A stretch of 64,000 nt of DNA, from NCBI GenBank assembly GCA_963665095.1, contig OY762069.1, positions 96,001-160,000 on the forward strand. Direction: 5' to 3'. This DNA is from an uncultured Desulfobacter sp. GTDB lineage: Bacteria > Desulfobacterota > Desulfobacteria > Desulfobacterales > Desulfobacteraceae. The position numbers were made by a program, and so were the translations under genes. Positions within the stretch are counted from its first letter, which is position 1. Every line of letters starts with the position of its first letter. Shown here piece by piece: positions 14,763-47,650 of this stretch. The notes below the pieces were generated by a model. It worked only from the letters and a program-made list of their open reading frames with translations. It was not told where the DNA came from and ran no database searches.

Positions 14763-14814
14763 TCTTAACGGTTCAAAATCACCGGCTTGCCCGTGTGAAT
14801 TTTGTTTGTTGAAA
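14763..14814 (-). other. attC-like site (52 bp)
   Basis: TTTCAAC-AAACAA-AATTCACA-CGGGCAAGCC-GGTGATT-TTGAACC-GTTAAGA, 8 bp after the ATPase stop. Confidence 0.65.
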
Positions 14815-14822
14815 ATCAATTT

Positions 14823-15956
14823 TCAGGATAAGGTTAATTTTGACAACCATTTTGATGCAAGCCTGATTTCTGCTCCGTTTGGAAAAGTCTTTTCCCTATT
14901 AAGTTTTTTAGAAACTTGGACCATTTTTATTTCAGGGAAGAATTTTTTAAATAAATCAAAATTGGGGCTCAAGTTATTGTCGTTCCATTTGACCTCTACT
15001 AATAGAGAAGGGGTGTTGTTTTTTGAAATACAGAAATCAATTTCTTTGCCATCCTTATTTTTCACATAATACAAATTCCCTTCTTCTCCCAGGCAATCTT
15101 CCAAAAAATGTAATTCCTTCTGGATTGCACAGGCCACTGCATTTTCCAGTTTAATACCCTGCTCACCTAAAACCTGCCCCGTATCATAAAAGTAAAATTT
15201 AGGAGCTTTTTGAATAGCCCTGGCAATATTTTTATGGAAGGGCGGGACTTTAAAAAGCACATACATGTTTTCAAGTATTGTTAACCACCTTTTTACTGTT
15301 TTATCTGAACATTGCAGATCCTGGGCCAGGGAACTATATGAAACTGGACTCCCCACACGATGCTTTAACAATTGGATCAATGTTTCAATCTGAGTGATCT
15401 GCTGAACATTCTCTATTTCAATGAGATCCTGTTTTAAAATGATATCAAGATGGGATTTTTTCCAGCGATTATAAAAACGGACTGTCCCGTTTAAAAAAGG
15501 CTCTGGAAATCCACCAAACGATAGAAGCTTGTCCAGTTCAACTTCAGGGTCATCTGGTTTTAATACCGTATGGATTTCTTTAAGATCCAATGGATGCAAT
15601 CTGAATTGGAAAAATCGACCTGCCAGAGAATCTCCAACTTTTTTATAGGTGTCTAACCTGGCACTGCCTGTGACAAGTAATGACGGAGGAATGCCTTCCT
15701 TATCATAAATTCCCTTTATCCATGATTTCCAATTTTTCAGCTTATGCAATTCATCAAAGATAATAAGAGGTTTTGACCTGTCCCATGATCTTTCCTGTAA
15801 GCCCAATCTATCATCAACATTGTCATAGTTGAAATAATCAAAGTCATCCTTAAGCATTTTTGACAATGTTGTTTTTCCAGTCTGGCGCGGCCCGGTCAGC
15901 AGGATGATCTTTTTATCTAAATCGGCTTTAATATATTTTGTGAGATATCGTTTCAT
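14823..15956 (-). CDS. AAA_14/DUF4143 family ATPase (cassette gene)
   Basis: GPRQTGKTT, IIFDE, TGSA, SLAGR, GGFPE, KFYFYDTG, EIDF, EVK. Confidence 0.93.
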   Translation of the reverse strand: MKRYLTKYIKADLDKKIILLTGPRQTGKTTLSKMLKDDFDYFNYDNVDDRLGLQERSWDRSKPLIIFDELHKLKNWKSWIKGIYDKEGIPPSLLVTGSARLDTYKKVGDSLAGRFFQFRLHPLDLKEIHTVLKPDDPEVELDKLLSFGGFPEPFLNGTVRFYNRWKKSHLDIILKQDLIEIENVQQITQIETLIQLLKHRVGSPVSYSSLAQDLQCSDKTVKRWLTILENMYVLFKVPPFHKNIARAIQKAPKFYFYDTGQVLGEQGIKLENAVACAIQKELHFLEDCLGEEGNLYYVKNKDGKEIDFCISKNNTPSLLVEVKWNDNNLSPNFDLFKKFFPEIKMVQVSKKLNREKTFPNGAEIRLASKWLSKLTLS

Positions 15957-16039
15957 AAAGACTATTTTGGCATCTATTCCGAAATAGTCAAGACTTTTCC
16001 GGAAAGAAGTCCGAAATAGTCAGCTTTTACAAATCGTAA

Positions 16040-16087
16040 TTTTAACGTGAAAATCACCGGTTTATCCGGTGCATTTTCTGGTTAGAA
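16040..16087 (-). other. attC-like site (48 bp)
   Basis: TTCTAAC-CAGAA-AATGCACC-GGATAAACC-GGTGATT-TTCAC-GTTAAAA; L'' carries one extra base relative to L'. Confidence 0.8.
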
Positions 16088-17041
16088 TTAAGTATTGTGT
16101 CCCCCGAATTTCCCGCATCTCCAATCAGACCGGGCCTCTTTTTTAAAAACTGTTCTCACCTTATCCATAAAGCTTCTCAAAATAGGCGAGATCCATTTTC
16201 CCCGATACCATATCATCAAGACAGCAGTTTCAAGGGGCTCCTGTTCCCAATTCAGAGATGTCAGGTTACCTTCAGAAATCTCTGCTGCCGCTGCAATATC
16301 GGGCATTATGGTAATTCCGAGACCCTTTGAGACACACTGTTTAATCGCCTCTATACTGTTCATTTCCACTAAAGATGCTGTTTCAATTTTTTCTTGCATG
16401 AGCCACTGTTCAACAATCATCTTATAACTGCAATCATGCTTAGGTAAAAAGACGATTTCACCAGATAAATCTGTAATCAAAACGCTTTTCTTTTGGGACA
16501 GGTAATGAGTAGGGGAAGCAAACATTGCCAGAGTTACTGTTCCTAAAAACTCAGTTTTCAGTTCTGAAAAATCAACAGAGTCAGCCAACAGAAAAGCAAT
16601 GTCGGTAATTCCGGATTTAAGCTCATTGGGCAGGTTTTGATATTCACAGCTAGCCACGTCAAAGTCTATATTGGGATAGGATTTGTAAAATTCCTGTAGG
16701 ATATCAGGAAGAAAATAGGTTCCAAGGGTTTGGGGAATTCTTAAAGACAGTTTCCCTTGGGGTGTTTTTACTTCAGAAACTGTTGCCAATGCTTCTTTTT
16801 CCATCGCACAGATTTTCTGTGCATATTGTACCAGATCCCTGCCAGCCCCTGTTAATTCAATGGTTTTTCCCTTCCTCTGAAAAAGGCGCTTTCCTAACTC
16901 CTCTTCCAAAATTTTAATCTGGGCAGATATGGTGGACTGGGCATAGTTCAATGTTTCGGCAGATTTTCTAAAATTGAGCAACCTCGCCACAGTTAAAAAG
17001 GTCTTCAGGTTTCGGATCTCCAAGCAGCCCCCTCTGATCAT
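16088..17041 (-). CDS. LysR family regulator
   Basis: NFRKSAETLNYAQSTISAQIKILEEELG. Confidence 0.93.
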   Translation of the reverse strand: MIRGGCLEIRNLKTFLTVARLLNFRKSAETLNYAQSTISAQIKILEEELGKRLFQRKGKTIELTGAGRDLVQYAQKICAMEKEALATVSEVKTPQGKLSLRIPQTLGTYFLPDILQEFYKSYPNIDFDVASCEYQNLPNELKSGITDIAFLLADSVDFSELKTEFLGTVTLAMFASPTHYLSQKKSVLITDLSGEIVFLPKHDCSYKMIVEQWLMQEKIETASLVEMNSIEAIKQCVSKGLGITIMPDIAAAAEISEGNLTSLNWEQEPLETAVLMIWYRGKWISPILRSFMDKVRTVFKKEARSDWRCGKFGGHNT

Positions 17042-17204
17042 AAAATTCGATCAAAAGCTTCAATTAATTTCATTGGACACAAAAATATCGATAATATATA
17101 CAGGCCTGAAAATCAAATACTTTTTGTGGACATTTAAAATGTTCGGTCTGACGATGTCTTATGACAGACGTCATTTACTATGAAAAAAGAAAAAGGAGAA
17201 AATC

Positions 17205-17726
17205 ATGAAAAAGCAAGTATCTTTAACATTTTTGCTGATTGTTAGTATCGTCTGTTCTATTCCATTGGCGGCCTTGTCTGGAGAAAACCCTCCGCCTTAT
17301 CAAGTAAAAGTTAAAAGCCGTGAAGTAACAAACAGGATTGTTGAATCCTATGTCCGAGGCCATAAGGTGTTGGCAGATCAGCCTAAAAATTTTGGAGCCG
17401 ATGATTTGGCACCGACCCCGCCGGAATACTTGGCCGTAGCCTATAGCACCTGTGTTGTATCCACCCTTCGGTTCGTGGCGATGCTGGACAAGCTGGACAT
17501 CAAAAATATTGAAGTCCAAGTGGAAGGAGAGGTTGACTTCTCAAAAGCAATGGGGCTTGATACGACGAAAAGGGCTGGACTTTTTGGCTTAAATGTCAAG
17601 ATCAGCTTTGAGTCGACCATGACCAAAAGCGAACAGCAAGCATTTGTCGATAAAGCAATGGAACGGGGTGCTGTTCTTGACAATGTTCGTAACAAAACAC
17701 AAGTCTTATATGAAATTATAAACTAA
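17205..17726 (+). CDS. OsmC family protein with signal peptide
   Basis: DQPKNFGADDLAPTPPEYL...STC. Confidence 0.85.
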   Translation: MKKQVSLTFLLIVSIVCSIPLAALSGENPPPYQVKVKSREVTNRIVESYVRGHKVLADQPKNFGADDLAPTPPEYLAVAYSTCVVSTLRFVAMLDKLDIKNIEVQVEGEVDFSKAMGLDTTKRAGLFGLNVKISFESTMTKSEQQAFVDKAMERGAVLDNVRNKTQVLYEIIN

Positions 17727-17841
17727 TTTGAAATACCGGCTTTTATTTATACTCTGCAACGCGACAAATCACGGGTCGGGTGCAAATTGGGTCAAATGGG
17801 GTACATTGTCAATGACCGCACAAAATTGATCCAGTTGCCCA

Positions 17842-17930
17842 AAAAAACGTTGAGTTAAGCGGAAAAATTATAACCCAAAAACAACGTAAAACCCGGCGGG
17901 TACTTTTCCGTCTTCAACTCTTTGTTACAT
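17842..17930 (-). other. attC site (89 bp) of IS91-transposase cassette copy 1
   Basis: ATGTAAC-AAAGA-GTTGAAGA...GCTTAAC-TCAAC-GTTTTTT. Confidence 0.8.
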
Positions 17931-19654
17931 TAACCGGGTCGAAGCCTCGCAGTTGATTTCTTGGGTAAAAGCAGGGGAATCCTTATTTTCAAACTTAGAT
18001 TTAACAGCACAGATTCTAAAATTTGCCTGGTAAAATTGAGTGAGCATTAAGATTCTTCCTTCTACTTAATCCGGTCAGGCTTGAAAAAGAGCCGAAAAAC
18101 CTGGTACCGGAGCGGATTGCCGATACGAGTCCCTGACAGGGAACTGCCTATTTTGATATCGGTAATTGTTTCCAAAGTAAAGCTTTTTATAGTTCCCCTG
18201 ATTTAGCCGGAATTTGCTTGGCCTTGGTTTTTGGTAAGTCGTCTTTCACCACGTTGCCATGACCGTCCAGCACCAGGATCGTTATCATGTTCCCTTTGCC
18301 GCAGGCCGGGCATTGAGGCGTCTGTTCTTTCAGGGGTTCAGGATCAGGGGTATCCCGGTCATTCAATGCCTGGCGTATTTCCGATATATTTCGTCCTGCC
18401 TGCCCGTTGGCCAGAAACCCATAATATCTGATCCGATGAAAGTGTTTTGGAAGAACATGCAAAAGGAAACGATCAATGAAGCTCATTACCGGTAAAGAAG
18501 TTGTTTCCCACTTGGATTTATTCCGGGTGTTTTTAAACCAGAACTCCACAGTCTCGTTGTTAACGGATATAATCCTGTTGTTGCTGATGGCTGTTGAATG
18601 GGTGTATCTACCGATATATTTAACGACTTCGGCTGGACCTGAGAATGGTGGTTTGGAATATACCACCCAGTCTTTTGGAGCGGTATGGTACAGCCATTGC
18701 CTGAATGCGCAGGGTTTTGAAAGATGAGCCAGTTCATCCGGGATGTTTAATCGTCCTCGACCGTGGGCTGCAATAAGGCCGCTAAGGAACTTTGCCCTGA
18801 ATACATTTGAAAGCGCTTTGACCGGAAACAGGAATGTTGAGCTGTACTTGGGCTCCACCCATTCCCCATAAGTGTTTATTCCGCCTGCAGTGACAATGAA
18901 ATGGATGTGGGGATGCAGCCAGAGTTTGCCGCCCCAGGTGTGGAGGATACCGTAGAACCCGATCTTGGCTCCAAGACGCTTTGGATTCTCCCCGAATTCC
19001 AGCAGGGTCTGGGAGGCGCTTTCAAACAACAGGTCATACATTACCCGCCGGTTGAACCGGCACAAAGGGTTGAAGATATCCGGCAATGTGAAAACGCAGT
19101 GGTGATAGGACACCGGAAGCAGATCGTTGATCCTGGCCGTCACCCATCTGTGACGGGCGATATTGTTTCAACCCGGACAATGGCGGTTCCGGCAGGAGTT
19201 GTATCCTTTTTCAAGGTGGCCGCATGTGTCGCATAGCTCCCAGTGGGTGCCAAATTCTCCGCGTCGACAATGCTCGATATCGTACATAACCTTGTGTTGC
19301 CTGGGGTGCAGGCGGTGTGCTGATCTGAAGGGAGGACCGTATTTTCTAAATATATCTCCGACGCTTGGACCGGTTTCGGGTTTTTCAGGGAGCTTGGTAT
19401 GGCTGCAAAGTGTTTTCATCGGTTATCGAAGCCCGCAGCGTAGGAGAACGGGAGGCGCAGGCTGCAATGATTTATGACAGGCGTGGCATTTGCGCAGTTT
19501 GCAAATGACATGACTGGCAGAAATCTTGCGTCTGGGCGTCCCCCCGTTCTCCGGAAAAGTTTGCACCATAGATTATGAAGTCCTTATTTTATAGGCGTTT
19601 CGAGCTCTGCAGTTGGCTTCAAGATGTTGCATTCACCGTCCAGGTTTAATGTAA
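17848..19654 (-). mobile_element. Gene cassette carrying an IS91-family transposase, copy 1 (1807 bp)
   Basis: Near-identical to 37795..39420; identity ends at the GTT cores on both sides. Confidence 0.8.
18187..19419 (-). CDS. IS91-family (Y2 HUH) transposase, 410 aa if the in-frame TGA at 19168-19170 is read through; otherwise a pseudogene
   Basis: CDTC...NSCRNRHCPG*, HHCVFTLP, LHTWG, HPHIH, YIGRY, HRIRYYGFL. The two listed ORFs are in the same frame. Confidence 0.85.
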
Positions 19655-19674
19655 CGTCAAAATCTGCGGTTTAT

Positions 19675-21803
19675 GCCAGGTAGCCGGGGACCGTTACCGG
19701 TCCCAAGCCCCTTAAGAACCGGACGTGAGACTTTCACCTCATCCGGCTCAAGCATTGATAAGGCGTGTTGCCACACCCAACAGTTGTCTTCGTTTCCAAC
19801 GAGCTTTGAGATAGTCGGCCCATGCAGGATCGTACGGGTTAACATTCGCTCTAATCTTGATATGTCTGGTAAGCCGGGTCGCGCCTAGTAAAATCAGGGG
19901 TTCGGGATTACCTTTTTCCATGAATCGCCAGTCTCGACCTTTGATTCTCCGGTAATACTTGTTTTTAACCCATCCTTTAGATTTCTTTGGATGCCTTCGC
20001 CTGGCCCATTGCCATGTCATTTGCCAAAATGCATGGTCCAAATCCCCAAACACCTTCCGGCTTACGACGTGTTTGTAATAATTTGCCCAACCGCGTATGA
20101 TACTATTCAGTTTGGCAATAACAACATCGGTTCGCAGGGTTTTATTGGCATGCAGATAGTCTCTGACTTTCGCTTTTATGCGTTTAATGCTGGATTTTGA
20201 AGGTTTTATCAGAAGTTTGCCTTTGTATTTTCTGACATTGAAGCCAAGGAAATCAAAGCCATCATCAATATGTGTGATAATGGTTTTCTCTTTTGATAGT
20301 TCAAGTCCCCTTATTTTAAGGAACTCTTCGATCAAAGGCTTGACTTTATGTTTGAGCATTTCCGGAGAACGGCCCGTTACAATGAAATCATCAGCACACC
20401 TGACAAAATGAATTTTGTCAGGCTTCTTGAAGTTATCATCAAGGAGGGGCTGGATACCGTCAAGAGCCATATTGGCAAGCGTCGGTGAAATTATTCCACC
20501 CTGTGGAGTCCCTTCATTTGTCGAATTAAATATATGTTTCTCAAGATAACCGCACTTGAGCCATTGTTTTAATTTCTTCTTGTTCATGGGAATGTTTTCA
20601 TCCAACCATTTATGATCGATAAAATCAAAACAGCCTTTGATATCTGCCTCTAAAATCCAGTCAGCACTACCTTTCCGTCTTAACGCATTGTAAATCGCTC
20701 CTATGGCATCCTGGGCCGAGCGGACTTTCCTGAATCCATAGGAATGATGATCCGCTGTGGATTCAGATACCGGATCAAGCCCTAATAAATCAAGGGCCTG
20801 TTCCACCCGGTCATGCATGGCCGGTATGCCTAATGGTCGTTTCTTACCATTTTTCTTTGGGATATAAATACGTTTCAGCGGCTTAGCCTTATATTCGGGA
20901 AGATTAAGATTCTTGAGCGTTTCCCATCGCTTCCGAGGTGTATCAATTAACATATTGTCAACACCTGGGGTTCGTTTTCCACTATTGGATATTACCCGTT
21001 TGATAGCAATAAGTTTTGCCGCAAGCGAGTTGGACAGCAGCCTTTGAAGGCCGCGTACCTTTTGTTTTAATCCTTGCTTAACTGCCTTCACGATACGCGC
21101 TTGTATACGGAATACTGTCTGTCTGTGCTTATCCCAGTCAATGAGATCCCACACATTCTTCAAGCCCATACGGCCGTCAACATCATGTAATGATATCATC
21201 CATCCACACCAGTATAGTTATTCCGTTCAAATCATTTCCCGTGATTCAACACCGTGCCGGAAGTCTGCACACTTTCGTGTCCGGGCAAATTTTGAACCCG
21301 TATCTGATCCATTACAGAACAGCATTCGCTTTCTCCAGCGTTCCTCTACCCGCATCCCCATAGGCCACCCTTGCGGCTGGCTGTCCTTACGGGGAAGGAG
21401 AGATACGGGCTTACCAAGTTCCACTTTCAACACACAATGGGTTAGCGTCTGTCTATCCGCCGGAGGGATCATTGATTACGTGAAGCAACTACGGAATACT
21501 CCAACCATACCTCTTGCCTTTTGGCCCAGGCCTGTCAGCATCTTTGGCCTGTCAAACATAACGACGTTTATTAACAGTTCACATATGTTACGCATACCAT
21601 CGTTCCTAGCTCCCATCCGGGTTGATGCTCCCAGAGTTGAGGTCCTCTTACGATTATCTCTTCCGGCCATAGGCCAAGGGCTTCATTGTCATCCGGGCTT
21701 CACACAAAAACATTACTGCTAGTGCATGCCGGAGTAGAAAACTGCCGGTAATACGGCAGGTTGGGGCGAGCCCAACATTATTAAAAGCGACTTCTTGTCG
21801 CAA
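19675..21803 (-). mobile_element. Group II intron (chloroplast-like/IIB-type features)
   Basis: 5' end TTGCGACAAGAAGTCGC; domain V GAGCCGGATGAGGTGAAAGTCTCACGTCCGGTTC; domain VI ends CTACCTGGC; internal RT ORF. Confidence 0.9.
19748..21199 (-). CDS. ltrA: Group II intron reverse transcriptase/maturase without an endonuclease domain
   Basis: TPGVD, RPLGIP, YGFR, DIKGCFD, GTPQGGIISP, RCADDF, IRGWANYY, NPYDP. Confidence 0.93.
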   Translation of the reverse strand: MISLHDVDGRMGLKNVWDLIDWDKHRQTVFRIQARIVKAVKQGLKQKVRGLQRLLSNSLAAKLIAIKRVISNSGKRTPGVDNMLIDTPRKRWETLKNLNLPEYKAKPLKRIYIPKKNGKKRPLGIPAMHDRVEQALDLLGLDPVSESTADHHSYGFRKVRSAQDAIGAIYNALRRKGSADWILEADIKGCFDFIDHKWLDENIPMNKKKLKQWLKCGYLEKHIFNSTNEGTPQGGIISPTLANMALDGIQPLLDDNFKKPDKIHFVRCADDFIVTGRSPEMLKHKVKPLIEEFLKIRGLELSKEKTIITHIDDGFDFLGFNVRKYKGKLLIKPSKSSIKRIKAKVRDYLHANKTLRTDVVIAKLNSIIRGWANYYKHVVSRKVFGDLDHAFWQMTWQWARRRHPKKSKGWVKNKYYRRIKGRDWRFMEKGNPEPLILLGATRLTRHIKIRANVNPYDPAWADYLKARWKRRQLLGVATRLINA

Positions 21804-21965
21804 CCGTAGTATGTTTTTGTTAGGGGAATCTCAATTCTTATTCATTTTTGTGTTTAATCAATTCAACAGCTGTTGCATATCTTCAATAACAACCAGTAGT
21901 TGCCCTCATCCTGAACAATCCCAACCCCACCTTGATACACCTGGAAAACTTAATTAATTTTATAA

Positions 21966-22225
21966 GTGTGTAATGGCCAACAGGCAATAAGCAATATTAA
22001 TGTTTACAAACCGCGTACCCCCAAAGAAAGCGCATATTACAAGCGTGTTGAGAATCATTTTGAAGAGTTGGAACGGGTGTGGGATGATATGTATACCCCC
22101 CGATACGGCTATTGGCGAACATACGTCATGACCGTAATTTACAGATATCTCGATTGTGGAAATCTTCATATGGGGTTTGCCAGGGTCCGCTGTGAAGAAT
22201 GCGGCCATGAGTACCTCCTGGCATT
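21966..22225 (+). pseudogene. N-terminal Zn-binding fragment of a second IS91-family transposase type
   Basis: YRYLDCGNLHMGFARVRCEECGHEYLLA, after which similarity ends. Confidence 0.75.
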
Positions 22226-22240
22226 AGCATGTCGTTCAAA

Positions 22241-22420
22241 CTACACCTCCTTTTGTTATGGCATATTGAAAAATCGAATGCCGGGCTGTGTCGCTAATTG
22301 CCACAACCGCCGGGTGCTTGAGTATACACTCCACACAGATGGCGTAAAATTTTTCTTTAATGTTGTCATACCTGCTGATAACCTCTACCTGGTACTGGGT
22401 TTCCATAGGACGAGGAATAG
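22241..22420 (-). pseudogene. C-terminal fragment of an NhaR-like LysR regulator
   Basis: Manual translation QYQVEVISRYDNIKEKFYAICVECILKHPAVVAISDTARHSIF. Confidence 0.55.
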
Positions 22421-22435
22421 CGTTTACCCGTTACC

Positions 22436-22740
22436 ATGAAAAACCTTTCCCTGTATGGGTCTCTTTCCTACAACAGGTTCTACTTTGCCCAGGACATTGA
22501 TAACGCCTCCGGCGGCAAGGTTTCCGTTGACGGCCAACAGGTACCGGGTGCGCCGAAGTTTCTCGCCAAGGGGATTGTCAGTTATACAATCGGGGATTTC
22601 ACCCTGTCTCCCAGTGTAAAATACTTTTTCGAGAGATACGGCGATGTCCTTCATCGGGAGCGGATTGATGATGCGGTGATTTACGATTTCGACCTGAGCT
22701 ATGCAACGACCCTGCCTCGGTTCAAGATCAAGAAAGCCGT
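22436..22740 (+). pseudogene. TonB-dependent receptor C-terminal fragment
   Basis: NLSLYGSLSYNRF...QVPGAPK...IYDFDLSY. Confidence 0.7.
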
Positions 22741-22793
22741 CTCAAAACCTGTTGCCGATAATTTTTTCTGCTGGCCGTTTTTCAGGCGGCAGC

Positions 22794-24019: not shown

Positions 24020-24082
24020 GTCCCTTTTTTATCCGCAGAATCTGCTGGCGTATCCCTGCCACGGGTATGCGCCGGTTTCAAA

Positions 24083-24245
24083 GGCTATGGCAGGTCTTCT
24101 GACTTCCGGATCATCCTAATCTGCCGCGCCTTCCCGTCCTTAAACAGTGGCATTTTGCGGTGTTCGTCCCCGGTTACAGCGGCGGGCCCATCCCTGATTC
24201 TCACAGGGTTCCCTGTTCGGCTTTAAACAGCACCATCACCTGTAT
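24083..24245 (-). promoter_or_regulatory. Cobalamin (B12) riboswitch
   Basis: GGTGC...AGGGAA...GTGAGAATC...CCCGCCGCTGTAA...GCCACTG...GGGAAGG...AAGTCAGAAGACCTGCC. Confidence 0.93.
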
Positions 24246-24367
24246 GATTTATGAGCCATCAGATATATCCGTAAACTGCGGATACTGTCAAGTGATTTGT
24301 TAACTATTTGAATTAGTTGAAAAAATTAAATAAGTTGCAACGGAAAATCATTTTTCTTGACATTAAC

Positions 24368-24924: not shown

Positions 24925-24946
24925 GTTAACTATTAAGGAGTTTAAT

Positions 24947-33689: not shown

Positions 33690-33795
33690 TTGGTGCGAGT
33701 GGATTGTTGAATACGATAGGATTGTCCAAAATTTGATGGGCAGCTCGCATCATCGCAACTCTATTGGCCGTAAGACTGGGGTTGTTCAGTTTCAT
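33690..33795 (-). pseudogene. N-terminal fragment of an LCM-family SAM methyltransferase
   Basis: PSLTANRVAMMRAAHQILDNPIVFNNPLA, followed by unrelated sequence. Confidence 0.65.
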
Positions 33796-34684: not shown

Positions 34685-34733
34685 GTATAACGCAAAAATA
34701 ACCGGCATCATCCGGTTCATTTTTTTGTTGAGT
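34685..34733 (-). other. attC-like site (49 bp)
   Basis: ACTCAAC-AAAAA-AATGAACC-GGATGATGCC-GGTTATT-TTTGC-GTTATAC. Confidence 0.8.
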
Positions 34734-35671: not shown

Positions 35672-36434
35672 TTTCTTTGACCATTTGTCTCGGAATCGTT
35701 ATCTGATAGGCAGCATCAAACACACCGCCCTTGACCAGCATGCGCTTGCCTCGGCCCAAATCAATACCTTTGGTTTCCAGCTCTTTGTGCCAGGAATGAT
35801 CATGGCGATCACTAAACCATAAAAACAGCCGTTTTGCTTTCACCTGTTTGCAGCGTGTCAACAACTCGCCAAGCAGTTTCGGCCTTAAATTAACGGCGCC
35901 TTCAAAAAACGTATCAGCTACTGAAAAATCAGCCGTTTCCCGTACATCTGCTAATAATTCTAGCAGGGCAAGTTCCGGGGTACTAAAGGGAATCGACCAA
36001 TCCCAGGGCCCATAGGGCCGGGTGGTTAAGCCAGGTTTGGGAAGTTCTTCAAACAGTCGTTTGATATGGATTTCAAATCTGAAAGAATCTGAGAAAATGT
36101 GGGTCCAATCCGGTATTTTCCCAGTGCTGTACAGGCCAATCCGTTGCGTATCACCCAACGGCAGATAGTGGGCCAAACCCTGCAATTCAAGGGCACTGCG
36201 GCCGCCTACGTGTACTGCATATCCCATTTCATTCAGGGAAAAGACCACATGCTCCCACTTAAGTGGGGGGCCTGGACGTCTATATATGCCATGACTTAAG
36301 GCCACGAGCTTACCAGCCCGTAAGGCGTAGTCCACCCTGGGCCTGTTAAACCCTCGTTCCTTTAACCAGGTACGATTCACTAATTGCCCATCCGGGAGGT
36401 GTTGCTCAAGTCTTTTTATATTTTTAGGTGGCAT
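35652..36434 (-). CDS. abiEi: AbiEi antitoxin
   Basis: GIYRR, HVGGRSALEL, STPELALLE, VKAKRLFL, IDLGRGKR; overlaps the toxin gene. Confidence 0.9.
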   Translation of the reverse strand: MPPKNIKRLEQHLPDGQLVNRTWLKERGFNRPRVDYALRAGKLVALSHGIYRRPGPPLKWEHVVFSLNEMGYAVHVGGRSALELQGLAHYLPLGDTQRIGLYSTGKIPDWTHIFSDSFRFEIHIKRLFEELPKPGLTTRPYGPWDWSIPFSTPELALLELLADVRETADFSVADTFFEGAVNLRPKLLGELLTRCKQVKAKRLFLWFSDRHDHSWHKELETKGIDLGRGKRMLVKGGVFDAAYQITIPRQMVKENENSLF

Positions 36435-36630: not shown

Positions 36631-37176
36631 CGGGTCGGACCAAGCTATATCCTTTATTCATAGGCATCTTGCTGCCAAATCACGGTGTTATTAGGGGCTA
36701 TATTGCTGTTTTTGCCCCTTTTCGATAATTTTACGACCTTTTGCCCTCAAACCCAATTGAGACAGAATATCATTTATGAAATTGTTACTACCAACTGCCA
36801 GGCTTTCGGTTCATCTTTCCTTTCTCTTGATAATATCAGCTTTTAATGCACTATCAATCCAATTCTTGTGAGCTGTTTGAAAAGCATTAAAAGTATCAAA
36901 TATAATCAAGGACGACAAGGTGATATCTTTTCTTGGATTGATAAAGCCACTGCATCCATCGGTGTCGATCCTTAGCGAATTTGAATAGAAATTCCCTTTT
37001 ATGACAACAATGGGTTAAGTGCCAGATGTGTCCTGGAATATAATGTCTATTCGCTCTTGCCATTTTTATTCCTATATTGCTCTTTTTGGCCCCCAAAAAT
37101 CAATTATAGACCCGTTTTAGAGGGTATTTATTAAGTTATTTCCTTAATTGACAGCCTTTTTGCTCGGTCCGACCCG
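36631..37176 (-). mobile_element. Internally deleted RAYT (Y1 HUH transposase) remnant with inverted ends
   Basis: MARANRHYIPGHIWHLTH from 37063; TESLAVGS C-terminal piece; ends CGGGTCGGACCAAGC and GCTCGGTCCGACCCG (14/15 complementary). Confidence 0.7.
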
Positions 37177-37273
37177 CTTCCGCTAGTTTAAATTTTCATT
37201 AACCAGACATCTTCGAAAAAGCCGCGCAGTAAGCCCGGTCGGGTTCATTGGTTTGTTTGCTCATTGCTTATTG

Positions 37274-37756
37274 TTAACCAACTGGAATTCCGGTATTTTT
37301 ATCATAGAGCAAAATCATATTGACTATTTCATTTTCTCGATTCCATTGATGATAAAACCAATTATTACCTGATGACTCTATCAGCTCTCGTAGCTGATTT
37401 TGAATATTCAACTCCCCATCGTATCGTTCAAACAATGTTGGGAAATTATCCTGATTAGGATTTCTTGTGTGAATATAGATTGCATCTTGACTTGAATCAT
37501 CAATATCTATGATACAAAAAGTTTGAAAATCTTCTTTTCTATCTGATAATTTTCTTTTCAGAAACTCAAAGCGCCTCAATAGGGCTTTTAAGTGTGGCTC
37601 CCTTGCTTTCCATGATTTTTTCCCAAGACCATACCAATCTGGATGATCATGCCAGAAATCAAACCAAGAATTAAATGCAAGCCGGTCAAAATATTTTTCA
37701 AGATCACCATTCAACAGCGTGTTGAAGTATCTTCTTTGTCCTCGGATTTTTCTCAT
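37274..37756 (-). CDS. Hypothetical protein (cassette gene)
   Basis: 160 aa, AT-rich. Starts about 32 bp after an R' box and is followed by R''/L'' boxes at 37242-37261. Confidence 0.75.
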   Translation of the reverse strand: MRKIRGQRRYFNTLLNGDLEKYFDRLAFNSWFDFWHDHPDWYGLGKKSWKAREPHLKALLRRFEFLKRKLSDRKEDFQTFCIIDIDDSSQDAIYIHTRNPNQDNFPTLFERYDGELNIQNQLRELIESSGNNWFYHQWNRENEIVNMILLYDKNTGIPVG

Positions 37757-37788
37757 ATCTTGTATAGTTCATTTCATTGTTTTTGTAC

Positions 37789-37877
37789 GCTAAACGTTGA
37801 GTTAAGCGGAAAAATTATAACCCAAAAACAACGTAAAACCCGGCGGGTACTTTTCCGTCTTCAACTCTTTGTTACAT
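37789..37877 (-). other. attC site (89 bp) of IS91-transposase cassette copy 2
   Basis: Same as 17842..17930 except that R' reads GTTTAGC. Confidence 0.8.
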
Positions 37878-39420
37878 TAACCGGGTCGAAGCCTCGCAGT
37901 TGATTTCTTGGGTAAAAGCAGGGGAATCCTTATTTTCAAACTTAGATTTAACAGCACAGATTCTAAAATTTGCCTGGTAAAATTGAGTGAGCATTAAGAT
38001 TCTTCCTTCTACTTTATCCGGTCAGGCTTGAAAAAGAGCCGAAAAACCTGGTACCGGAGCGGATTGCCGATACGAGTCCCTGACAGGGAACTGCCTATTT
38101 TGATATCGGTAATTGTTTCCAAAGTAAAGCTTTTTATGGTTCCCCTGATTTAGCCGGAATTTGCTTGGCCTTGGTTTTTGGTAAGTCGTCTTTCACCACG
38201 TTGCCATGACCGTCCAGCACCAGGATCGTTATCATGTTCCCTTTGCCGCAGGCCGGGCATTGAGGCGTCTGTTCTTTCAGGGGTTCAGGATCAGGGGTAT
38301 CCCGGTCATTCAATGCCTGGCGTATTTCCGATATATTTCGTCCTGCCTGCCCGTTGGCCAGAAACCCATAATATCTGATCCGATGAAAGTGTTTTGGAAG
38401 AACATGCAAAAGGAAACGATCAATGAAGCTCATTACCGGTAAAGAAGTTGTTTCCCACTTGGATTTATTCCGGGTGTTTTTAAACCAGAACTCCACAGTC
38501 TCGTTGTTAACGGATATAATCCTGTTGTTGCTGATGGCTGTTGAATGGGTGTATCTACCGATATATTTAACGACTTCGGCTGGACCTGAGAATGGTGGTT
38601 TGGAATATACCACCCAGTCTTTTGGAGCGGTATGGTACAGCCATTGCCTGAATGCGCAGGGTTTTGAAAGATGAGCCAGTTCATCCGGGATGTTTAATCG
38701 TCCTCGACCGTGGGCTGCAATAAGGCCGCTAAGGAACTTTGCCCTGAATACATTTGAAAGCGCTTTGACCGGAAACAGGAATGTTGAGCTGTACTTGGGC
38801 TCCACCCATTCCCCATAAGTGTTTATTCCGCCTGCAGTGACAATGAAATGGATGTGGGGATGCAGCCAGAGTTTGCCGCCCCAGGTGTGGAGGATACCGT
38901 AGAACCCGATCTTGGCTCCAAGACGCTTTGGATTCTCCCCGAATTCCAGCAGGGTCTGGGAGGCGCTTTCAAACAACAGGTCATACATTACCCGCCGGTT
39001 GAACCGGCACAAAGGGTTGAAGATATCCGGCAATGTGAAAACGCAGTGGTGATAGGACACCGGAAGCAGATCGTTGATCCTGGCCGTCACCCATCTGTGA
39101 CGGGCGATATTGTTTCAACCCGGACAATGGCGGTTCCGGCAGGAGTTGTATCCTTTTTCAAGGTGGCCGCATGTGTCGCATAGCTCCCAGTGGGTGCCAA
39201 ATTCTCCGCGTCGGCAGTGCTCGATATCGTACATAACCTTGTGTTGTCTGGGGTGCAGGCGGTGTGCTGATCTGAAGGGAGGACCGTATTTTCTAAATAT
39301 ATCTCCGACGCTTGGACCGGAAAAGTTTGCACCATAGATTATGAAGTCCTTATTTTATAGGCGTTTCGAGCTCTGTAGTTGGCTTCAAGATGTTGCATTC
39401 ACCGTCCAGGTTTAATGTAA
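37795..39420 (-). mobile_element. IS91-transposase cassette, copy 2 (1626 bp; 181-bp deletion)
   Basis: Aligns to copy 1; the deletion lies between CCGG repeats and removes the start codon. Confidence 0.8.
38134..39320 (-). pseudogene. IS91-family transposase, 5'-truncated, with the same in-frame TGA (39115-39117)
   Basis: Protein identical to copy 1 except for the last residue and the missing N-terminus. Confidence 0.8.
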
Positions 39421-39462
39421 TGTGAAAATCACCGGTTTATCCGGTTCATTTTTTTGTTGGAA
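39415..39462 (-). other. attC-like site (48 bp; GTT core reads ATT)
   Basis: TTCCAAC-AAAAA-AATGAACC-GGATAAACC-GGTGATT-TTCAC-ATTACAT. Confidence 0.75.
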
Positions 39463-39793
39463 TTAAGCATCGTGCTCCCGGAATTTGCTGGCGAAAAGCA
39501 ATGTCCTGTCAATTACATATATTGTCCCCGGAACTCATAGCCCCCGGAACTCAAAATTTTTAAACCGTTGGTGCTGCCAAAAGACGATACTCAAGGTTCG
39601 CGCCTCCTTTACTAATCATCTTCTAACAATAGATCTTCATTTTGGTATTATATTATTCCTATAGATGCCCATAACTATAACCGCCATGGGATGATCTGGC
39701 CTTGCCAACATCCGGAATCACCCCTGATAAAATATAAAAGCAACTGAATAGCTTATTGAAATTTATATATAAAACCTGCCAAAGGAGAAACCA

Positions 39794-41494: not shown

Positions 41495-41507
41495 GAGTGA
41501 CAACCTT

Positions 41508-42131: not shown

Positions 42132-42266
42132 CAACCGATACATATAACAGCCACGGGCTGACTTGACATATCTTCTGCCAGGCACAGCCCACAACAAAGA
42201 TAAAAAGTTTCTCAACGACTTAACGAGACTTTCTTATAAAACTTCTGATTTTGGAGATCACAGCCA

Positions 42267-43367: not shown

Positions 43368-43392
43368 AAAAATATTTTAAGGAGGACCACCC

Positions 43393-44631: not shown

Positions 44632-44710
44632 GTCCAGGTCCTGATCCTGATATTCTTATTTTATCCAAAAAATCACCCGATCCCCGGTCAGGGGATCAAT
44701 TAAAAAAAAA

Positions 44711-44837
44711 AGTGTTTGGGTGAAACGTTGCCCAAAGGCAAGGCAAAGAAAAATCTGAAACCGAGGCGTGCTAAAATACGTAAGGGTTTCAGATTTTTCT
44801 GTAACGCCGCAGATGGGTGCCTTTTAGCCCAAACACT
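44711..44837. repeat. MITE/REP-like palindromic element
   Basis: Terminal inverted repeats AGTGTTTGGG/CCCAAACACT; inner inverted repeat AGAAAAATCTGAAACC/GGTTTCAGATTTTTCT. Confidence 0.7.
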
Positions 44838-44868
44838 GAATATTAGGCTACGACTGAATATTCCGCAT

Positions 44869-45240
44869 CTATAATATCATCATCCTGGGACGCTTTACTG
44901 CCTGCGGTTCCACCGGGCCTGAAGCCCCGCCTGGGCCCTGCTTCCGGGCATATGCCGCCTGGCTCATGGTGCTTACAGCCTGGTTCAGGTGATCCGCCGC
45001 CGTGTTGAACCGGTTCACATTCTCTGACTTGACGGCCTCTTTCAATTCGTTGACCAGACCTTCCAGGCGGCTGCGGGTATCCGCATCCACAGCGATCTGT
45101 GATCCTGACATTACTTTCTCAGTCTGGTATATCAACTGGTCGGCCTGGTTCCTGGCAGTGATCAGCACCTTTTTGCACTTGTCCTCTTCGGCATGAAGTT
45201 CGGCATCTTTTACCAGGGCATCGATATCCTCTTCACCTGC
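44869..45240 (-). pseudogene. dnaK: DnaK C-terminal fragment
   Basis: EEDIDALVKDAELHAEEDK...ARNQADQLIYQTEK. Confidence 0.8.
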
Positions 45241-45306
45241 TTTGGGAGACACTTGATAGACATCCCTATCACTCTGCTATTCCTCAAAAATTCTAATTCT
45301 TCGAGA

Positions 45307-45390
45307 TTTTAACATTGAGTTAAGCGGCTGCCGAACAGCCAAAAAAATGCCTCCGACGGTTGATGCCCGTCTTCAACTCATTTGTTAAAT
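45307..45390 (-). other. attC site (84 bp)
   Basis: ATTTAAC-AAATGA-GTTGAAGA...GCTTAAC-TCAAT-GTTAAAA. Confidence 0.8.
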
Positions 45391-45410
45391 TAGCCCATCA
45401 CCGTTTAAGC

Positions 45411-45428
45411 TTGGCACCTGGTTTGCAT
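45411..45428 (+). promoter_or_regulatory. Sigma-54 -24/-12 promoter consensus
   Basis: TTGGCAC-CTGGT-TTGCAT. Confidence 0.7.
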
Positions 45429-45473
45429 TATAGAAAAAGTAGATTCTACCTCCTCGTCCGCCCGAAGGGCTTA

Positions 45474-45523
45474 ATTTAACGCAAACATCTGCGGCTTGTC
45501 CGTCAGCATGTTTGTTGTTAAAT
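45474..45523 (-). other. attC-like site (50 bp)
   Basis: ATTTAAC-AACAAA-CATGCTGA-CGGACAAGCC-GCAGATG-TTTGC-GTTAAAT. Confidence 0.75.
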
Positions 45524-45556
45524 TTTTTCACGATGGTTTGGATTTTTTGAATCTGA

Positions 45557-46006
45557 TTATATTTCTTTTGAAATAGCTTGAAATAGTTTAAGTTTTAGTA
45601 CTTCTGAATCCATCTCTTCGTTAAGAAATGCCGTTAAAATCTCATGTAATAAGTCTTTACCAATTTTTCCATCGGCCACATGATAACTGATGTTTTCCAT
45701 TTCCCGCAAAAATTTCTCAGCACAATAAAGATAACCGTTTAGCAACAAAAATTGGGTACACAATACGATCGCAATTCGTTTGTTTCCATCAAGAAAACAG
45801 TGAAATTTACAAGTGCTAAAAAACAAATGGGTTAATTTATCAACAAATGTTGGATAATAGAGATCATTTTGAATATTCCCTAAAACGCCCTCAAGTTTGC
45901 CAAGCTCAAGATGGCCGACAGCTCCACCTCCACTTTTTTCAACAGTTTTTTCATGAATCGTAATAGCCTGTTCAATCGTAATATATTGGATAGACATGCA
46001 GTTCAC
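45557..46006 (-). CDS. Fic/Doc family protein
   Basis: HCFLDGNKRIA. Confidence 0.9.
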   Translation of the reverse strand: MNCMSIQYITIEQAITIHEKTVEKSGGGAVGHLELGKLEGVLGNIQNDLYYPTFVDKLTHLFFSTCKFHCFLDGNKRIAIVLCTQFLLLNGYLYCAEKFLREMENISYHVADGKIGKDLLHEILTAFLNEEMDSEVLKLKLFQAISKEI

Positions 46007-47049
46007 CTATCCTTAAGTCGTTTCAAAACATCTTTGGATTCTTCCAATCTTTCTTCTAATTCCTTACTCTTTTCTCCTAAAAATCGCTCAAACTCTTCTG
46101 CCTGGATTGGAGTGATATATTTCTCTAATTGCAGGTGCAATGCATCCCTGAAAGCAAGGTCTCTGCTTGCCATTTGATGGCGAGCTCTTTCAAGAAGAGG
46201 TTTCCATAGGGGAAGTGATTCAAATTTTTTAAATATTTTATCTACTTCAAATGAGGTAAGTTTTCTGCCGATTTTATTATACTCAGATTTTAATTCCTGG
46301 CTAAAACCATATTCATAAGAAGCTACAAGGTCAAGAATCTCAGAATAAAATGTATCCCGGAGTTTTTCTTTTGCATTCAATTTTAAGATTTTTCGATATT
46401 CTTTTGCTTTTTCTTTAAAAATGCTGACATAAATTTTATCCGTATAAAGTGGATACTTAAAATTACCCATGTTGACGTAATCTTTAAGGGCATCTGTAAA
46501 TCCTTTCCGGTAATTTTCTTCATGAAAATATGCCAGAATAAATTTTTCATCCCTTTGGTTGATATATTTTGTACCGCCACCCGTTTTTTGATTTATCGTA
46601 TCGATAACGATATCCAAAATTGTGCTACGCAACAATTGTGCTCTTTGGCTTTCAACCATTATCATGGCCAGATTTAAGAAGGCCCTGAACCCAAAAGCCC
46701 CTAATTGCGGGCTTTTGGCGATGTTCCCGAAATCTGTTTCGGGAACATCCAGTGCAGAAATAGATTCTTTCAATATTTTCAATCTATTACCCTTGATAAC
46801 CTCGTAACCACTTTGGCTCAATTCCGTTTCATGGCTTTTTAAATAATTTTCAATGGTTCGTGTCGTCACCTCGAAAAATGAAGCCACTTGTTCTTTGAGA
46901 ACAACCGTTTTTCCCTCAAAAGGAATTCCTTTGATATGAACAGCCTTTTCAATTTCCTTAATGGCATAGGGGTTGTTCAAAATATTCTGACGATCAACCG
47001 TTGAAACAGTTAGGTCTTTACTTTCAGAAGGTGATTTTTGTTCATTCAT
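46003..47049 (-). CDS. Putative DNA-binding partner of the Fic/Doc gene
   Basis: HTH-like QVASFFEVTTRTIENY; ATGA overlap with the Fic gene. Confidence 0.7.
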   Translation of the reverse strand: MNEQKSPSESKDLTVSTVDRQNILNNPYAIKEIEKAVHIKGIPFEGKTVVLKEQVASFFEVTTRTIENYLKSHETELSQSGYEVIKGNRLKILKESISALDVPETDFGNIAKSPQLGAFGFRAFLNLAMIMVESQRAQLLRSTILDIVIDTINQKTGGGTKYINQRDEKFILAYFHEENYRKGFTDALKDYVNMGNFKYPLYTDKIYVSIFKEKAKEYRKILKLNAKEKLRDTFYSEILDLVASYEYGFSQELKSEYNKIGRKLTSFEVDKIFKKFESLPLWKPLLERARHQMASRDLAFRDALHLQLEKYITPIQAEEFERFLGEKSKELEERLEESKDVLKRLKDR

Positions 47050-47170
47050 TTTAAACTCTCTTTAAAAATTTGACTGCCTCTAATTTTTAAACTGTAACAT
47101 TTTATCAGGTAATTGCCCACCGGTGACCGACTGAACGGTTCGCTGAAAGGTTTCGAAGCGCCAGCGATGG

Positions 47171-47650
47171 TTAAAAGTCATTCCCAAGGGATGCCCAGTT
47201 TTCTGAAAAATATGTCTCAATTCCTTTCCCAGGGTTATATCGGGGATAAATTTGTTCGAATTCAGACCTTGCATTTGCATAGGATTGGTCACTTATAGTT
47301 GATAAACCCTTTGCCATAAAAAGCAATGCCAGTAAAGGTGCTCTTGATTCTCCTTGGTTGCAATGAATAAGCAATTTCCTGCCAGCATCCCAGTGTTTGC
47401 CAGAAAAAACCATAAAGCTCGTAAAGAGTGGGGGCATGAATAGCGGAACTGGAGGATCTATCATGTTGAGATAAAGGTCAAATTCTTTTTCAAAGACTAA
47501 ATAATTGGGATGTGTTTTGGGCAAACTCCCTCTATAACCTACGATTCGTTGATGGCATGGACTTTTACACGCGTGAACGACCACTAATTCATCTGTCCCA
47601 TTGGTGCAAGATACCAACTGGACCGCAGTCTTTGCAGTTTTGCGCAGCAA
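47171..47650 (-). CDS. Protein tyrosine/dual-specificity phosphatase-like protein (start uncertain)
   Basis: LIHCNQGESRAP matches the CX5R motif. Confidence 0.7.
   Translation of the reverse strand: MLRKTAKTAVQLVSCTNGTDELVVVHACKSPCHQRIVGYRGSLPKTHPNYLVFEKEFDLYLNMIDPPVPLFMPPLFTSFMVFSGKHWDAGRKLLIHCNQGESRAPLLALLFMAKGLSTISDQSYANARSEFEQIYPRYNPGKGIETYFSENWASLGNDF

Follow-up and report, generated by a model that had tools for sequence, protein, structure and literature searches.

Can sites of about 50 bp serve as integron attC sites, or do the small hairpins of this locus only resemble them? The question is raised by a 64,000-nt window of an uncultured Desulfobacter genome (the window being the whole stretch that was analysed), in which a first-pass annotation had proposed three dispersed, integrase-less cassette arrays with unusually short attC sites. 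The window sites behave as attC in comparative tests at the sequence level. With a probability of roughly 0.8, the short ones would be genuine minimal integron attC sites, one of them interrupted by a group IIB/CL1-like intron whose lineage homes to the top strand of attC.

Nine full attC sites are present, and all have the cassette (top) strand on the minus strand, in agreement with the co-oriented R''-L''-L'-R' arrangement described earlier. The six sites of 48-52 bp with a GG-N5/6-CC apex were also found again, including one split by an intron and one with a damaged core; the other three sites are 84-89 bp long. The sites and site fragments are:

14763-14814, minus strand: short attC, 52 bp, two bulges (structural descriptor, folding)
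16040-16087, minus strand: short attC, 48 bp, one extrahelical C (descriptor; folding z -5.7)
17754-17780, minus strand: half site, L'-R' arm only (sequence reading)
17842-17930, minus strand: long attC, 89 bp, closing an IS91-type cassette (R'' is a 7/7 complement of the cassette start)
19649-19674, minus strand: intron-split short attC, 3' part with loop, L' and R' (IBS3 is 19674)
21804-21825, minus strand: intron-split short attC, 5' part with R'', IBS2 (21811-21816), first extrahelical base (21810) and IBS1 (21804-21809)
34685-34733, minus strand: short attC, 49 bp, closing an AbiEi/AbiEii cassette
37185-37262, minus strand: long-type attC truncated to its R''-L'' half, following a 160-aa AT-rich ORF (37274-37756)
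37789-37877, minus strand: long attC, 89 bp, copy 2
39415-39462, minus strand: short attC, 48 bp, core triplet mutated (AAT)
45307-45390, minus strand: long attC, 84 bp
45474-45523, minus strand: short attC, 50 bp, two bulges (folding z -5.0)
47130-47176, minus strand: degenerate attC-like remnant, non-foldable

The split site (19649-19674 plus 21804-21825) measures 48 bp after removal of the intron, and the two 89-bp sites are near-identical copies. The site at 39415, with an R-box pairing of 0.09, is probably inactive because AAT replaces AAC in its R'. Of two reported half sites, the one at 17754 is indeed an L'-R' arm, whereas the one at 37242 comes from a long-type attC, of which it is the R''-L'' half, and does not belong to the short family; its positions 37185-37257 match three other array loci. 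The weak candidate at 47130-47176 had to be dropped, with no complementary inner stem, a z of -0.65, an R-box pairing of 0.08 and no match to either a covariance model or the structural descriptor. That descriptor recovered 7 of the 8 intact sites in the window plus one unrelated match, and gave 0, 2 and 0 matches in three locally shuffled windows, both matches being longer than 56 bp. On folding, the six short sites had z-scores between -2.0 and -5.7, and the 89-bp site reached only -1.1. Rfam returned a cobalamin riboswitch and two intron domains, with no match at the attC sites. Since a first descriptor scan of the whole genome yielded 52 matches, many clearly due to chance, covariance models were used; MAFFT misaligned long and short sites when combined, and model R1 was therefore limited to 11 of 15 seeds.

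Comparison among genomes, a check proposed with the original claim, involved the following cassettes and leaders:

14712-14768, minus strand: conserved non-coding 'leader' of ~57 bp, beginning at the G|TT of array 1's last attC
17848-19654, minus strand: first copy of the IS91-type transposase cassette (N-terminal part split off by an in-frame stop; Y2 domain 18187-19143)
34760-36434, minus strand: AbiEi-AbiEii type IV toxin-antitoxin cassette
37795-39420, minus strand: IS91-type transposase cassette, copy 2, with a 5' deletion
45255-45312, minus strand: leader, copy 2, with a C-terminal fragment of Hsp70 after it
45313-45479, minus strand: non-coding cassette, 167 bp, closed by the 45307 site

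Shared cassettes swap neighbours exactly at G|TT, as seen for the AbiE, IS91-type and non-coding cassettes and for the leader. The AbiE cassette carries the same 49-bp-type site at 5 of 14 homologous loci, and at those with a short attC the sequence beyond G|TT is different in each and from the window. One IS91-type cassette start is joined to three different short sites, with complementarity between this start and its own R'' of 7/7, 7/7 and, for a mutated site, 6/7. Such complementarity is strong in long-site cassettes and weak in most short-site ones (6, 5, 4 and 3 of 7). The 167-bp cassette has a 98% copy in genome G022 with GTT at both ends and other neighbours, and no intI remnant was found near it. 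The leader had 13 matches in 7 of 25 genus genomes; reading by eye, an attC-like end at G|TT comes before every one of them. Both array 1 and array 3 terminate in a copy of their own. From genome comparison, then, short sites would recombine at G|TT by means of ordinary IntI. A joint between 14765 and 19652 in sequencing runs X10 and X11 is a weak hint, most other joints being short-sided or explained by repeats.

The IS91-type cassette, with four copies in the genome, one of them truncated, has a published counterpart in the IS91-like ISShvi3, which adjoins attC in Shewanella (PMC9229058). Both combine an IS91-type transposase and an attC into a cassette-like unit; going by the cited passage, the four copies in one genome, the cassette-type junctions and the R''-start complementarity set the present element apart.

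No IntI match or remnant was detected in the window (blastn; tblastn, E<=1), so that the absence of intI from the window stands. The system, however, is integrase-less only locally, because an intact and an IS-split intI lie elsewhere in the genome. The intact gene, which the annotation had advised looking for, is at G000:C1:910169-911113 (471 bits, cut-off 265), 0.77 Mb (770 kb) from the window arrays, and its product aligns to VchIntIA with no large gap. The 60 kb beside it yielded no site of 52 bp or less; the array of the IS-split intI holds three short sites, and next to an uninterrupted intI in G020:C3 the first attC found is one of 48 bp. All three window clusters can properly be called CALIN-like, each having at least two attC less than 4 kb apart and no intI nearby. 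CALINs are themselves ordinary, and the co-oriented clusters without adjoining intI resemble CALINs and SALINs as these are presented in parts of PMC5371416, PMC2727003, PMC4889954 and bioRxiv 2022.09.11.507474. These three are eroded remnants containing a transposase, an intron and non-cassette genes. They had been thought to be built on a minimal attC family; short sites are present, but intermixed with long ones, so they are not minimal alone. Covariance models had been suspected of missing this family, but IntegronFinder may well detect the short sites, because the variable loop is handled as a gap region in the description cited here (PMC4889954).

As to origin, the clusters could have been formed by IntI acting in trans at secondary (attG) sites instead of by decay of one intI-less integron, a possibility to which we give somewhat less than an even chance. 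Short sites are spread over about eight genome loci, mostly far from intI, arrays 1 and 3 have separate leaders at their ends, and attG insertion is published (bioRxiv 2022.09.11.507474, in the part cited). On the other hand, one orientation is shared by all sites over 32 kb, an IS91-type cassette is common to the window and the split-intI locus, and the DNA right of array 3 is nearly identical to DNA behind the split intI:

47613-50150, plus strand: block sharing 99.25% identity with the sequence directly behind the IS-split intI (G000:C1:3356335-3358872)

The third cluster may be what remains of an integron after loss of its intI. The three clusters would be eroded CALINs whose IntI is encoded elsewhere in the genome.

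The short sites belong to a type that is widespread in one family of sulfate-reducing bacteria. The short-site covariance model matches 91 of 120 genomes of this family and 7 of 149 elsewhere in the phylum, with about 670 matches in the family, and the type persists in 17 of 19 genera; as the sites were collected with a model built from themselves and the genomes are kin, these counts, and likewise those for the kin introns below, are not independent. Of 44 short sites measured, 43 are 48-52 bp long and one is 54 bp, below the 55/57-141 bp given in the cited parts of PMC5371416, PMC2727003, PMC4889954 and bioRxiv 2022.09.11.507474. Co-oriented attC of 57-130 bp alternate with them, and the intermixing seen in the window recurs in the arrays of relatives. 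The core triplets are GTT in 45/48 and AAC in 44/47 family sites, and the R''/R' triplets pair in 5 of the 6 short window sites. The first extrahelical base lies on the R''-L'' arm, 8-9 nt from R'', in 44/44 measured sites and is a bottom-strand C in 39/48; VCR tolerates a G>C change at this base, according to the passage cited (PMC2727003). The canonical second one (a T, 6-8 nt further up the stem) was not found at that place: a second base is absent in 20/44 and lies 2-4 nt from the first, at variable positions, in 24/44. The last loop base was considered as a conserved T in its stead, which holds for about half of the sites without a second base (11/20). The stem shows two-sided changes in 75 cells, where shuffles gave 27 and slid controls 7-30, in an alignment fitted to the model. 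The more stable fold is that of the bottom strand in only 17/48 sites.

The likeness to known attC (aadA7 type, VCR), as far as the cited descriptions go, comprises the G|TT crossover, the AAC-GTT box of R''/R', an unpaired spacer and an L box whose extrahelical base lies 8-9 nt from R''. The differences, within the same limits, are the length, the first extrahelical base (mostly C, not G) and the absent or displaced second one; between the L boxes we calculated ~8-12 nt, compared with 14-102 (PMC7370490). A minimal attC would keep the R box, unpaired spacer, L box and first extrahelical base, followed by six further pairs and a terminal loop of 5-6 nt, without an apical stem. Judged by these sequences, the short type is a real, family-wide attC variant below the published size range. 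If the sites recombine, the known natural minimum for attC drops by 7-9 bp, attC can do without the apical stem and the second extrahelical base, and the family's model matches offer natural variants for probing the requirements of IntI.

Short sites might instead be decayed attC relics or passive repeats that IntI recombines poorly or not at all, which we regard as unlikely. They could have been spread by transposons (Y1/TIRYT, IS91 or IS21 types) or by recombination between neighbours. Y1-related features of the window are:

16087-16110, minus strand: GGGGACAC motif that agrees with the inverted-repeat consensus of TIRYT (Y1 transposase) and abuts R'' of the 16040 site
36899-37063, minus strand: truncated Y1-transposase-like remnant (by-eye likeness to a Y1_Tnp protein of G004; no Pfam match of its own)

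The GGGGACAC motif provides the final codons and stop of a LysR gene. A TIRYT-like repeat abuts 5/47 short sites, against 0/47 downstream and a 2% background. Such decay would also fit the lack of a second extrahelical base (for IntI1 its spacing of 6 bp is important; PMC7439510, in the part cited), the loss of AAC in 3/47 short sites and the lack of short sites found beside the genome's intact intI. It is opposed by junctions exactly at G|TT in several cassettes, the 48-bp site that comes first in the complete integron of G020, compensatory stem changes and persistence of the type in so many genera.

The intron that splits one short attC consists of the following parts:

19675-21803, minus strand: group IIB (CL1-like) intron, 2129 nt, cassette-sense
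19748-21199, minus strand: intron RT/maturase, no endonuclease domain found
21489-21494, minus strand: EBS1
21554-21559, minus strand: EBS2
21478, minus strand: putative EBS3

Judging by its sequence, the intron is probably of the group IIB/CL1-like type: the ribozyme triad is AGC, an RVT_N domain is present and the best structure match of the RT is PDB 6me0 (479 bits, GsI-IIC 123 bits), which we take to be a IIB/CL intron. Pairing with the exons is complete (EBS1-IBS1 6/6, EBS2-IBS2 6/6, EBS3-IBS3 1/1), and EBS1 lies in a hairpin loop in both predicted folds, the fold of the whole intron not being significant (z -0.57). We examined 206 intron loci, of which 106 (97 distinct) had a usable 5' boundary; 10 close ones without a 5' exon were dropped. 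The window intron lies 15 nt after the AAC of R''; AAC precedes the insertion by 15-16 nt in 25 of 36 distinct close relatives and in 0/69 distant rows. Of the 11 out of register, 8 have a different target sequence and 3 a degenerate one. In the 18 of 25 in-register introns whose EBS positions could be mapped by motif, 188/216 EBS-IBS pairs form, compared with a permutation mean of 129 (maximum 165) and 75-96 on shifting; the putative EBS3 pairs in 9/10 introns. Pairing of EBS2 and EBS1 flanks the first extrahelical base.

This covariation suggests that the lineage finds its place in the top strand of attC through base pairing, and it would be mobile. EBS2 would read the six bases before the first extrahelical base, leave that base as an unpaired gap, and EBS1 would read the next six, giving insertion at the stem-loop junction. 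Insertion should block DNA folding of the split attC; the intron would have, on the transcribed strand, a target that recurs between genes, and would travel with cassettes. A homologous site without the intron was found on one contig of run X11. Among in-register relatives, L154, L197, L281, L285 and L289 have a 3' flank that fails to complete an attC. In the 1.5-kb flanks of intron loci almost no other attC was counted, a count that is uninformative, and a covariance-model search gave short sites in 2/12 intron loci.

An ordinary CL1 intron that met an attC once, with relatives owing their position to descent with the cassette and not to targeting, seems improbable. The relatives are kin, and the wider CL1 group has many other targets. 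However, the in-register targets are different attC sites (48, 50, 51, 68, 75 and 86 bp) with differing L'', EBS sequences vary along with the targets, and the register is kept over three well-supported clades and several families.

The proposed homing differs from that of group IIC-attC introns (S.ma.I2 type; PMC7923331, PMC4424553, in the parts cited), which share the repeated attC targets and the lack of an endonuclease. Those have a CGC triad and a class C RT, and insert antisense into the bottom strand at TTGT/T in R'' behind a hairpin, whereas the window intron is AGC and CL1-like, in cassette-sense in the top strand, at the L''/loop junction by EBS1 plus EBS2. Closer is UHB.I2, a IIB1/CL1 intron of a soda-lake cassette array (Sonbol and Siam 2021, PMC7923331), which resembles the window intron in its probable CL1 class, UUGCG start, cassette-sense orientation, attC association and lack of endonuclease. 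In the cited account it is a single case immediately after an attC, with no target rule, unlike the window lineage, which sits inside attC at a fixed distance from R''. We found neither the short attC type nor this intron's target register in attC described in the literature. The lineage would add another group II route to exploit integrons, beside the bottom-strand insertion of IIC, by reading the L'' arm, a part of attC thought to be constrained in structure and not in sequence.

A bolder idea is that minimal attC newly attached to resident genes represent cassette birth, with the sense intron as agent through splicing and reverse transcription: splicing would restore an intact attC behind a gene in RNA, and the intron RT could copy the gene-plus-attC cassette. 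We consider it doubtful. Genes beside short sites of the window are:

14823-15956, minus strand: AAA_14/DUF4143 ATPase gene (cassette 14769-16045)
16088-17726: divergent pair of LysR (16088-17041, minus) and OsmC (17205-17726, plus) between sites, unlike a typical cassette
33792-34658, minus strand: AT-rich peptidase MA-like gene, start 27 bp after the 34685 site
45557-47049, minus strand: 348-aa ORF and Fic/Doc gene, in front of the 45474 site

Short attC lie 0-33 bp behind the stop of the ATPase, AbiE, Fic-region and LysR genes here and are absent in homologues of 70-91% identity. They occur at 2/9 homologous loci of the ATPase and 0/3 of the Fic/Doc region; the sole LysR/OsmC homologue found (77%) is without attC, and no attC was found behind the peptidase MA-like gene. 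Gene pairs with and without a short attC are material on how cassettes arise.

Returning to minimal attC, most sites had been said to follow a stop codon, which applies to only 4 of the 9 full sites (14763, 16040, 34685 and 45474): the 89-bp sites lie ~260 bp behind the IS91-type transposase, the 45307 site stands at the end of a cassette without coding sequence, and the 39415 and split sites adjoin no gene end. In the family, a same-strand ORF ends before 21/42 short sites and an opposite-strand one before 7/42 (random places 71/400), so that half (21/42) lack a preceding gene end. On the other side of the short sites, ORF starts (27/45) are not commoner than at random places (56%). It is very improbable that these hairpins, small, GC-cored and close to gene ends, are intrinsic terminators or mimics of the REP type. 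One of the two intact short sites in 14500-22500 does score terminator-like, but this sole scoring site has its T run on the strand opposite to the genes, and the AAC/GTT box, one-sided bulge at 8-9 nt, G|TT junctions and co-oriented alternation with 57-130-bp attC are features of attC. The neighbouring genes had been called AT-rich, and five of them are, with 32-37% GC against 48.7% for the genome, whereas AbiEi/AbiEii, LysR and the transposase have 41-49%.

The clusters in the window are made up of real attC sites in ordinary CALINs. Every site named in the first-pass annotation was found at its position. On the minus strand, which is the cassette strand, eight intact R''-L''-L'-R' hairpins measure 52, 48, 89, 49, 89, 48, 84 and 50 bp, and a group II intron interrupts a ninth site, which is 48 bp long without its insert. 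A structural descriptor recovered seven of the eight intact sites plus one unrelated match, and returned 0, 2 and 0 matches, none of them short, in three shuffled windows. The six short sites gave folding z-scores from -2.0 to -5.7; the core C is gone from the site at 39415. The statement that most sites follow a stop codon did not hold, as this applies to only four of the nine full sites, and a weak candidate at 47130 was rejected because its sequence does not fold. IS-end-like repeats at 17781-17840, which we take to be of the IS21 type, stand in place of the 5' half of the site near 17754. The insertions and mobile cassettes relevant here are the following (G000:C1, the window's own contig; L323, a locus from the searches).

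19675-21803, minus (cassette) strand: group II intron splitting the 48-bp attC site
17848-19654: IS91-type cassette copy
37795-39420: IS91-type cassette copy
G000:C1:3330452 and 933698: IS91-type cassette copies
L323: IS91-type cassette

The IS91-family transposase moves in the form of an integron cassette, equipped with an 89-bp attC of its own. In all three copies checked, the Y2 domain is preceded by an in-frame stop, and depth in sequencing run X6 suggests five or six copies.

The 48-52-bp sites represent a new, family-wide variation on the known attC. At E<=5e-4, model R1 (11 seeds) returned 14 sites in the window's genome, including three new ones, and matched 21 of 24 genomes of the same genus versus 1 of 16 from other families. 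Model R2, built on 48 sites, gave about 670 matches in 91 of 120 genomes of the family (17 of 19 genera), with rough E-values for both models and kin genomes that are not independent. In the rest of the phylum, where only 39 candidates per genome were scored, it matched 7 of 149 genomes; one of these seven has near-identical 48-bp sites, and some of the other matches are 57-82-bp relatives bearing an apical extension. The host family is probably Desulfobacteraceae, since named records belonging to it group with same-family loci in the intron tree.

AAC is present in 44 of 47 distinct sites, and 43 of these 44 measure 48-52 bp. C occupies the first extrahelical position, 8-9 nt away from R'', in 39 of 48 sites; the second bulge is absent in 20 and in 24 is variable and located 2-4 nt further up. 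Two-sided stem changes numbered 75 versus 27 in shuffles, in an alignment fitted to the model. Published lengths, as given in the accessible parts of the sources, are 57-141 bp, or 56-141 in mobile integrons (PMC5371416), and 55-141 bp with 14-102 nt separating the L boxes (PMC7370490). Canonical sites are described there as having two or three extrahelical bases, with little effect of G>C at the first (PMC2727003) and, for IntI1, a spacing of 6 bp between the two that matters (PMC7439510). The short sites therefore miss two textbook features. Literature searches found no report of a 48-52-bp family; judged from the accessible part of PMC8352920, its Deltaproteobacteria attC model may contain such short sites.

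Comparison between genomes points to recombination at the short sites. The AbiEi/AbiEii cassette has homologues in 14 loci, and the same short site is present in five of them. Beyond G|TT, the crossover point in R', each of the five continues in a sequence of its own, also unlike that of the window, i.e., the AbiE neighbours change at G|TT; two more loci retain only an R'' stub, and the others lack the site or are cut short. At the R' crossover position, one and the same IS91-type cassette start follows three different short sites of the window's genome, and this start is the exact complement of the cassette's own R''. A relative (G022) has a 98% copy of the 167-bp non-coding cassette that follows the 45474 site, with GTT at both ends and other neighbours. 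Next to an uninterrupted intI in another relative (contig G020:C3), the first attC found is a 48-bp site. Short sites lie in co-oriented clusters in four of six mapped stretches of relatives; in three of the four, sites of 60-104 bp are interspersed.

Counting against recombination, half of the short sites have no gene end in front (21 of 42 do, versus 7 of 42 for the opposite strand and 71 of 400 random places), no enrichment of downstream gene starts was found behind them, only 17 of 48 fold more stably as the bottom strand, and complementarity between R'' and the cassette start is weak for most short-site cassettes. A role as terminators is unlikely since the T run, as scored in window 14500-22500, is on the antisense strand. 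If the short sites recombine, IntI would fold and recombine the bottom strand of the minimal hairpin, and the first extrahelical base together with the spacer would serve its strand choice.

Recent cassette formation and attC loss fit equally well with the distribution of genes with and without a short attC. The ATPase gene has one right behind its stop in two of nine homologous loci (72-89% identity), the 348-aa/Fic region in none of three, and LysR not in its single homologous locus. A TIRYT-like repeat abutting R'' supplies the last codons of the window LysR. Such repeats, matched with the consensus in the accessible part of bioRxiv 279083, precede 5 of 47 short sites. TIRYT-like inverted-repeat ends abut short-attC R'' at window 16087-16110 and 39463-39490, at G000:C1:1984118 and at loci L106, L120, L129, L156 and L178; Y1 elements may target or supply this junction.

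The intron splitting the 48-bp site has an AGC triad and encodes a 483-aa RT/maturase in which no endonuclease domain was found. Among solved structures the RT is closest to 6me0 (479 bits; GsI-IIC 123), presumably a IIB/chloroplast-like intron. A 59-bp part of the ORF (window 20237-20295) matches G000:C1:5837091-5837149 at 95%. Around the first extrahelical base of the site, EBS2 complements the preceding six bases and EBS1 the following six, 6/6 in each case; the extrahelical base itself is left unpaired between IBS2 and IBS1, and IBS3 is the first loop base. One contig of run X11 with a homologous intron-free site confirms the 3' boundary. The intron's mode of entry would be reverse splicing into the top strand; with 2.1 kb placed in its loop, the split attC should be silent, so that the two flanking cassettes would be movable only together.

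Searches yielded 206 loci of intron relatives. Of the close relatives, 36 distinct ones had a 5' exon that could be read: in 25 an AAC sits exactly 15 or 16 nt upstream of the insertion point, a register that occurs in none of 69 more distant rows, and three have degenerate targets. The other eight (L024, L160, L177, L275, L278, L279, L282, L287) make up a separate clade, a sister to the window intron with retargeted EBS; their target resembles the antisense of a domain of another group II intron, which we take to be domain 5. Flanks of in-register relatives rebuild attC sites of 48, 50, 51, 68, 75, 86 and 86 bp where both were present; those of L154, L197, L281, L285 and L289 do not. At least three ORF-less in-register relatives of 783-798 nt sit in short sites. 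For 18 introns with mapped EBS, pairing with their own targets reached 188 of 216 versus a mean of 129 and a maximum of 165 in 10,000 permutations, a test inflated by relatedness of the introns, and fell to 75-96 with the register shifted by 1-2 nt.

An intron lineage that probably homes to the L'' arm of attC is a new variation on the known intron-attC association; no such lineage was found in the published literature, in a search that was thin on subscription journals. IIC-attC introns insert in R'' of the bottom strand, whereas the window intron is on the cassette strand in the L'' arm. UHB.I2 (CL1) is reported immediately after attC in the accessible part of PMC7923331, in contrast to the position of the window lineage within attC; that of PMC9229058 mentions a CL1 intron in a Shewanella integron without giving its position. 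In the more distant CL1-like L035, L037, L038, L043 and L056, the 5' exon ends at the top-strand attC R' box, as for UHB.I2. CL1-like introns of Vibrio and Shewanella, and related ones (L052, L057, L065, L067, L071, L072, L074, L092, L093, L094), are inserted in sites of about 34 bp with little hairpin, about 12 nt downstream of an AAC; a GTT follows after about 8 nt in those with a 3' flank that was read.

The description of the arrays as integrase-less applies locally, there being no intI in the window, and fails genome-wide: the window lies within a 6.9-Mb single contig, and the genome has an intact and a split intI. The intact gene (C1:910169-911113; 471 bits versus a cut-off of 265) shows no large gap when aligned to the integrase structure of V. 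cholerae, and its product (G000:C1:910166-911560) has about 150 additional N-terminal residues before the integrase domain. In the 60 kb beside it only sites of at least 57 bp were found, and no short ones. The second intI (3348309-3354689) is split by multicopy insertions and adjoins an array with three 50-52-bp sites among sites of 58-128 bp. Because window 47613-50150 and the DNA immediately behind the split intI share 99.25% identity, and the IS91-type cassette is common to both loci, array 3 (the 45307/45474 cluster) may be the stump of an integron minus its integrase; trans insertion at secondary sites is the alternative origin. Cassettes would have entered the island via an integron since lost or via IntI in trans, and the arrays would then have decayed through insertion of IS91 and Y1 elements and introns. 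GC skew places the bottom strands on the lagging-strand template, an orientation that the accessible part of PMC5371416 links to more excision and small arrays.

The island hosting the arrays (window 1-60000) is dense in TonB receptors, AraC regulators, O-methyltransferases and iron/cobalamin ABC parts, and includes a cobalamin riboswitch at 24072-24252. A second IS91-type zinc-finger domain survives as a remnant at 21966-22439, and a Y1-like transposase as one at 36899-37063. Directly behind array 3 is an Hsp70 C-terminal fragment (44869-45252) with 76% identity to G000:C1:6649827-6650214. In 7 of 25 genus genomes, 13 attC-like ends of various kinds continue after G|TT into a conserved non-coding leader of about 57 bp (window 14712-14768 and 45255-45312; loci L138-L150), beyond which the DNA is unrelated. 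The leader may represent an element end, or else an ancestral attI-like site of which it is the right half; in the relative G024, two copies face each other.
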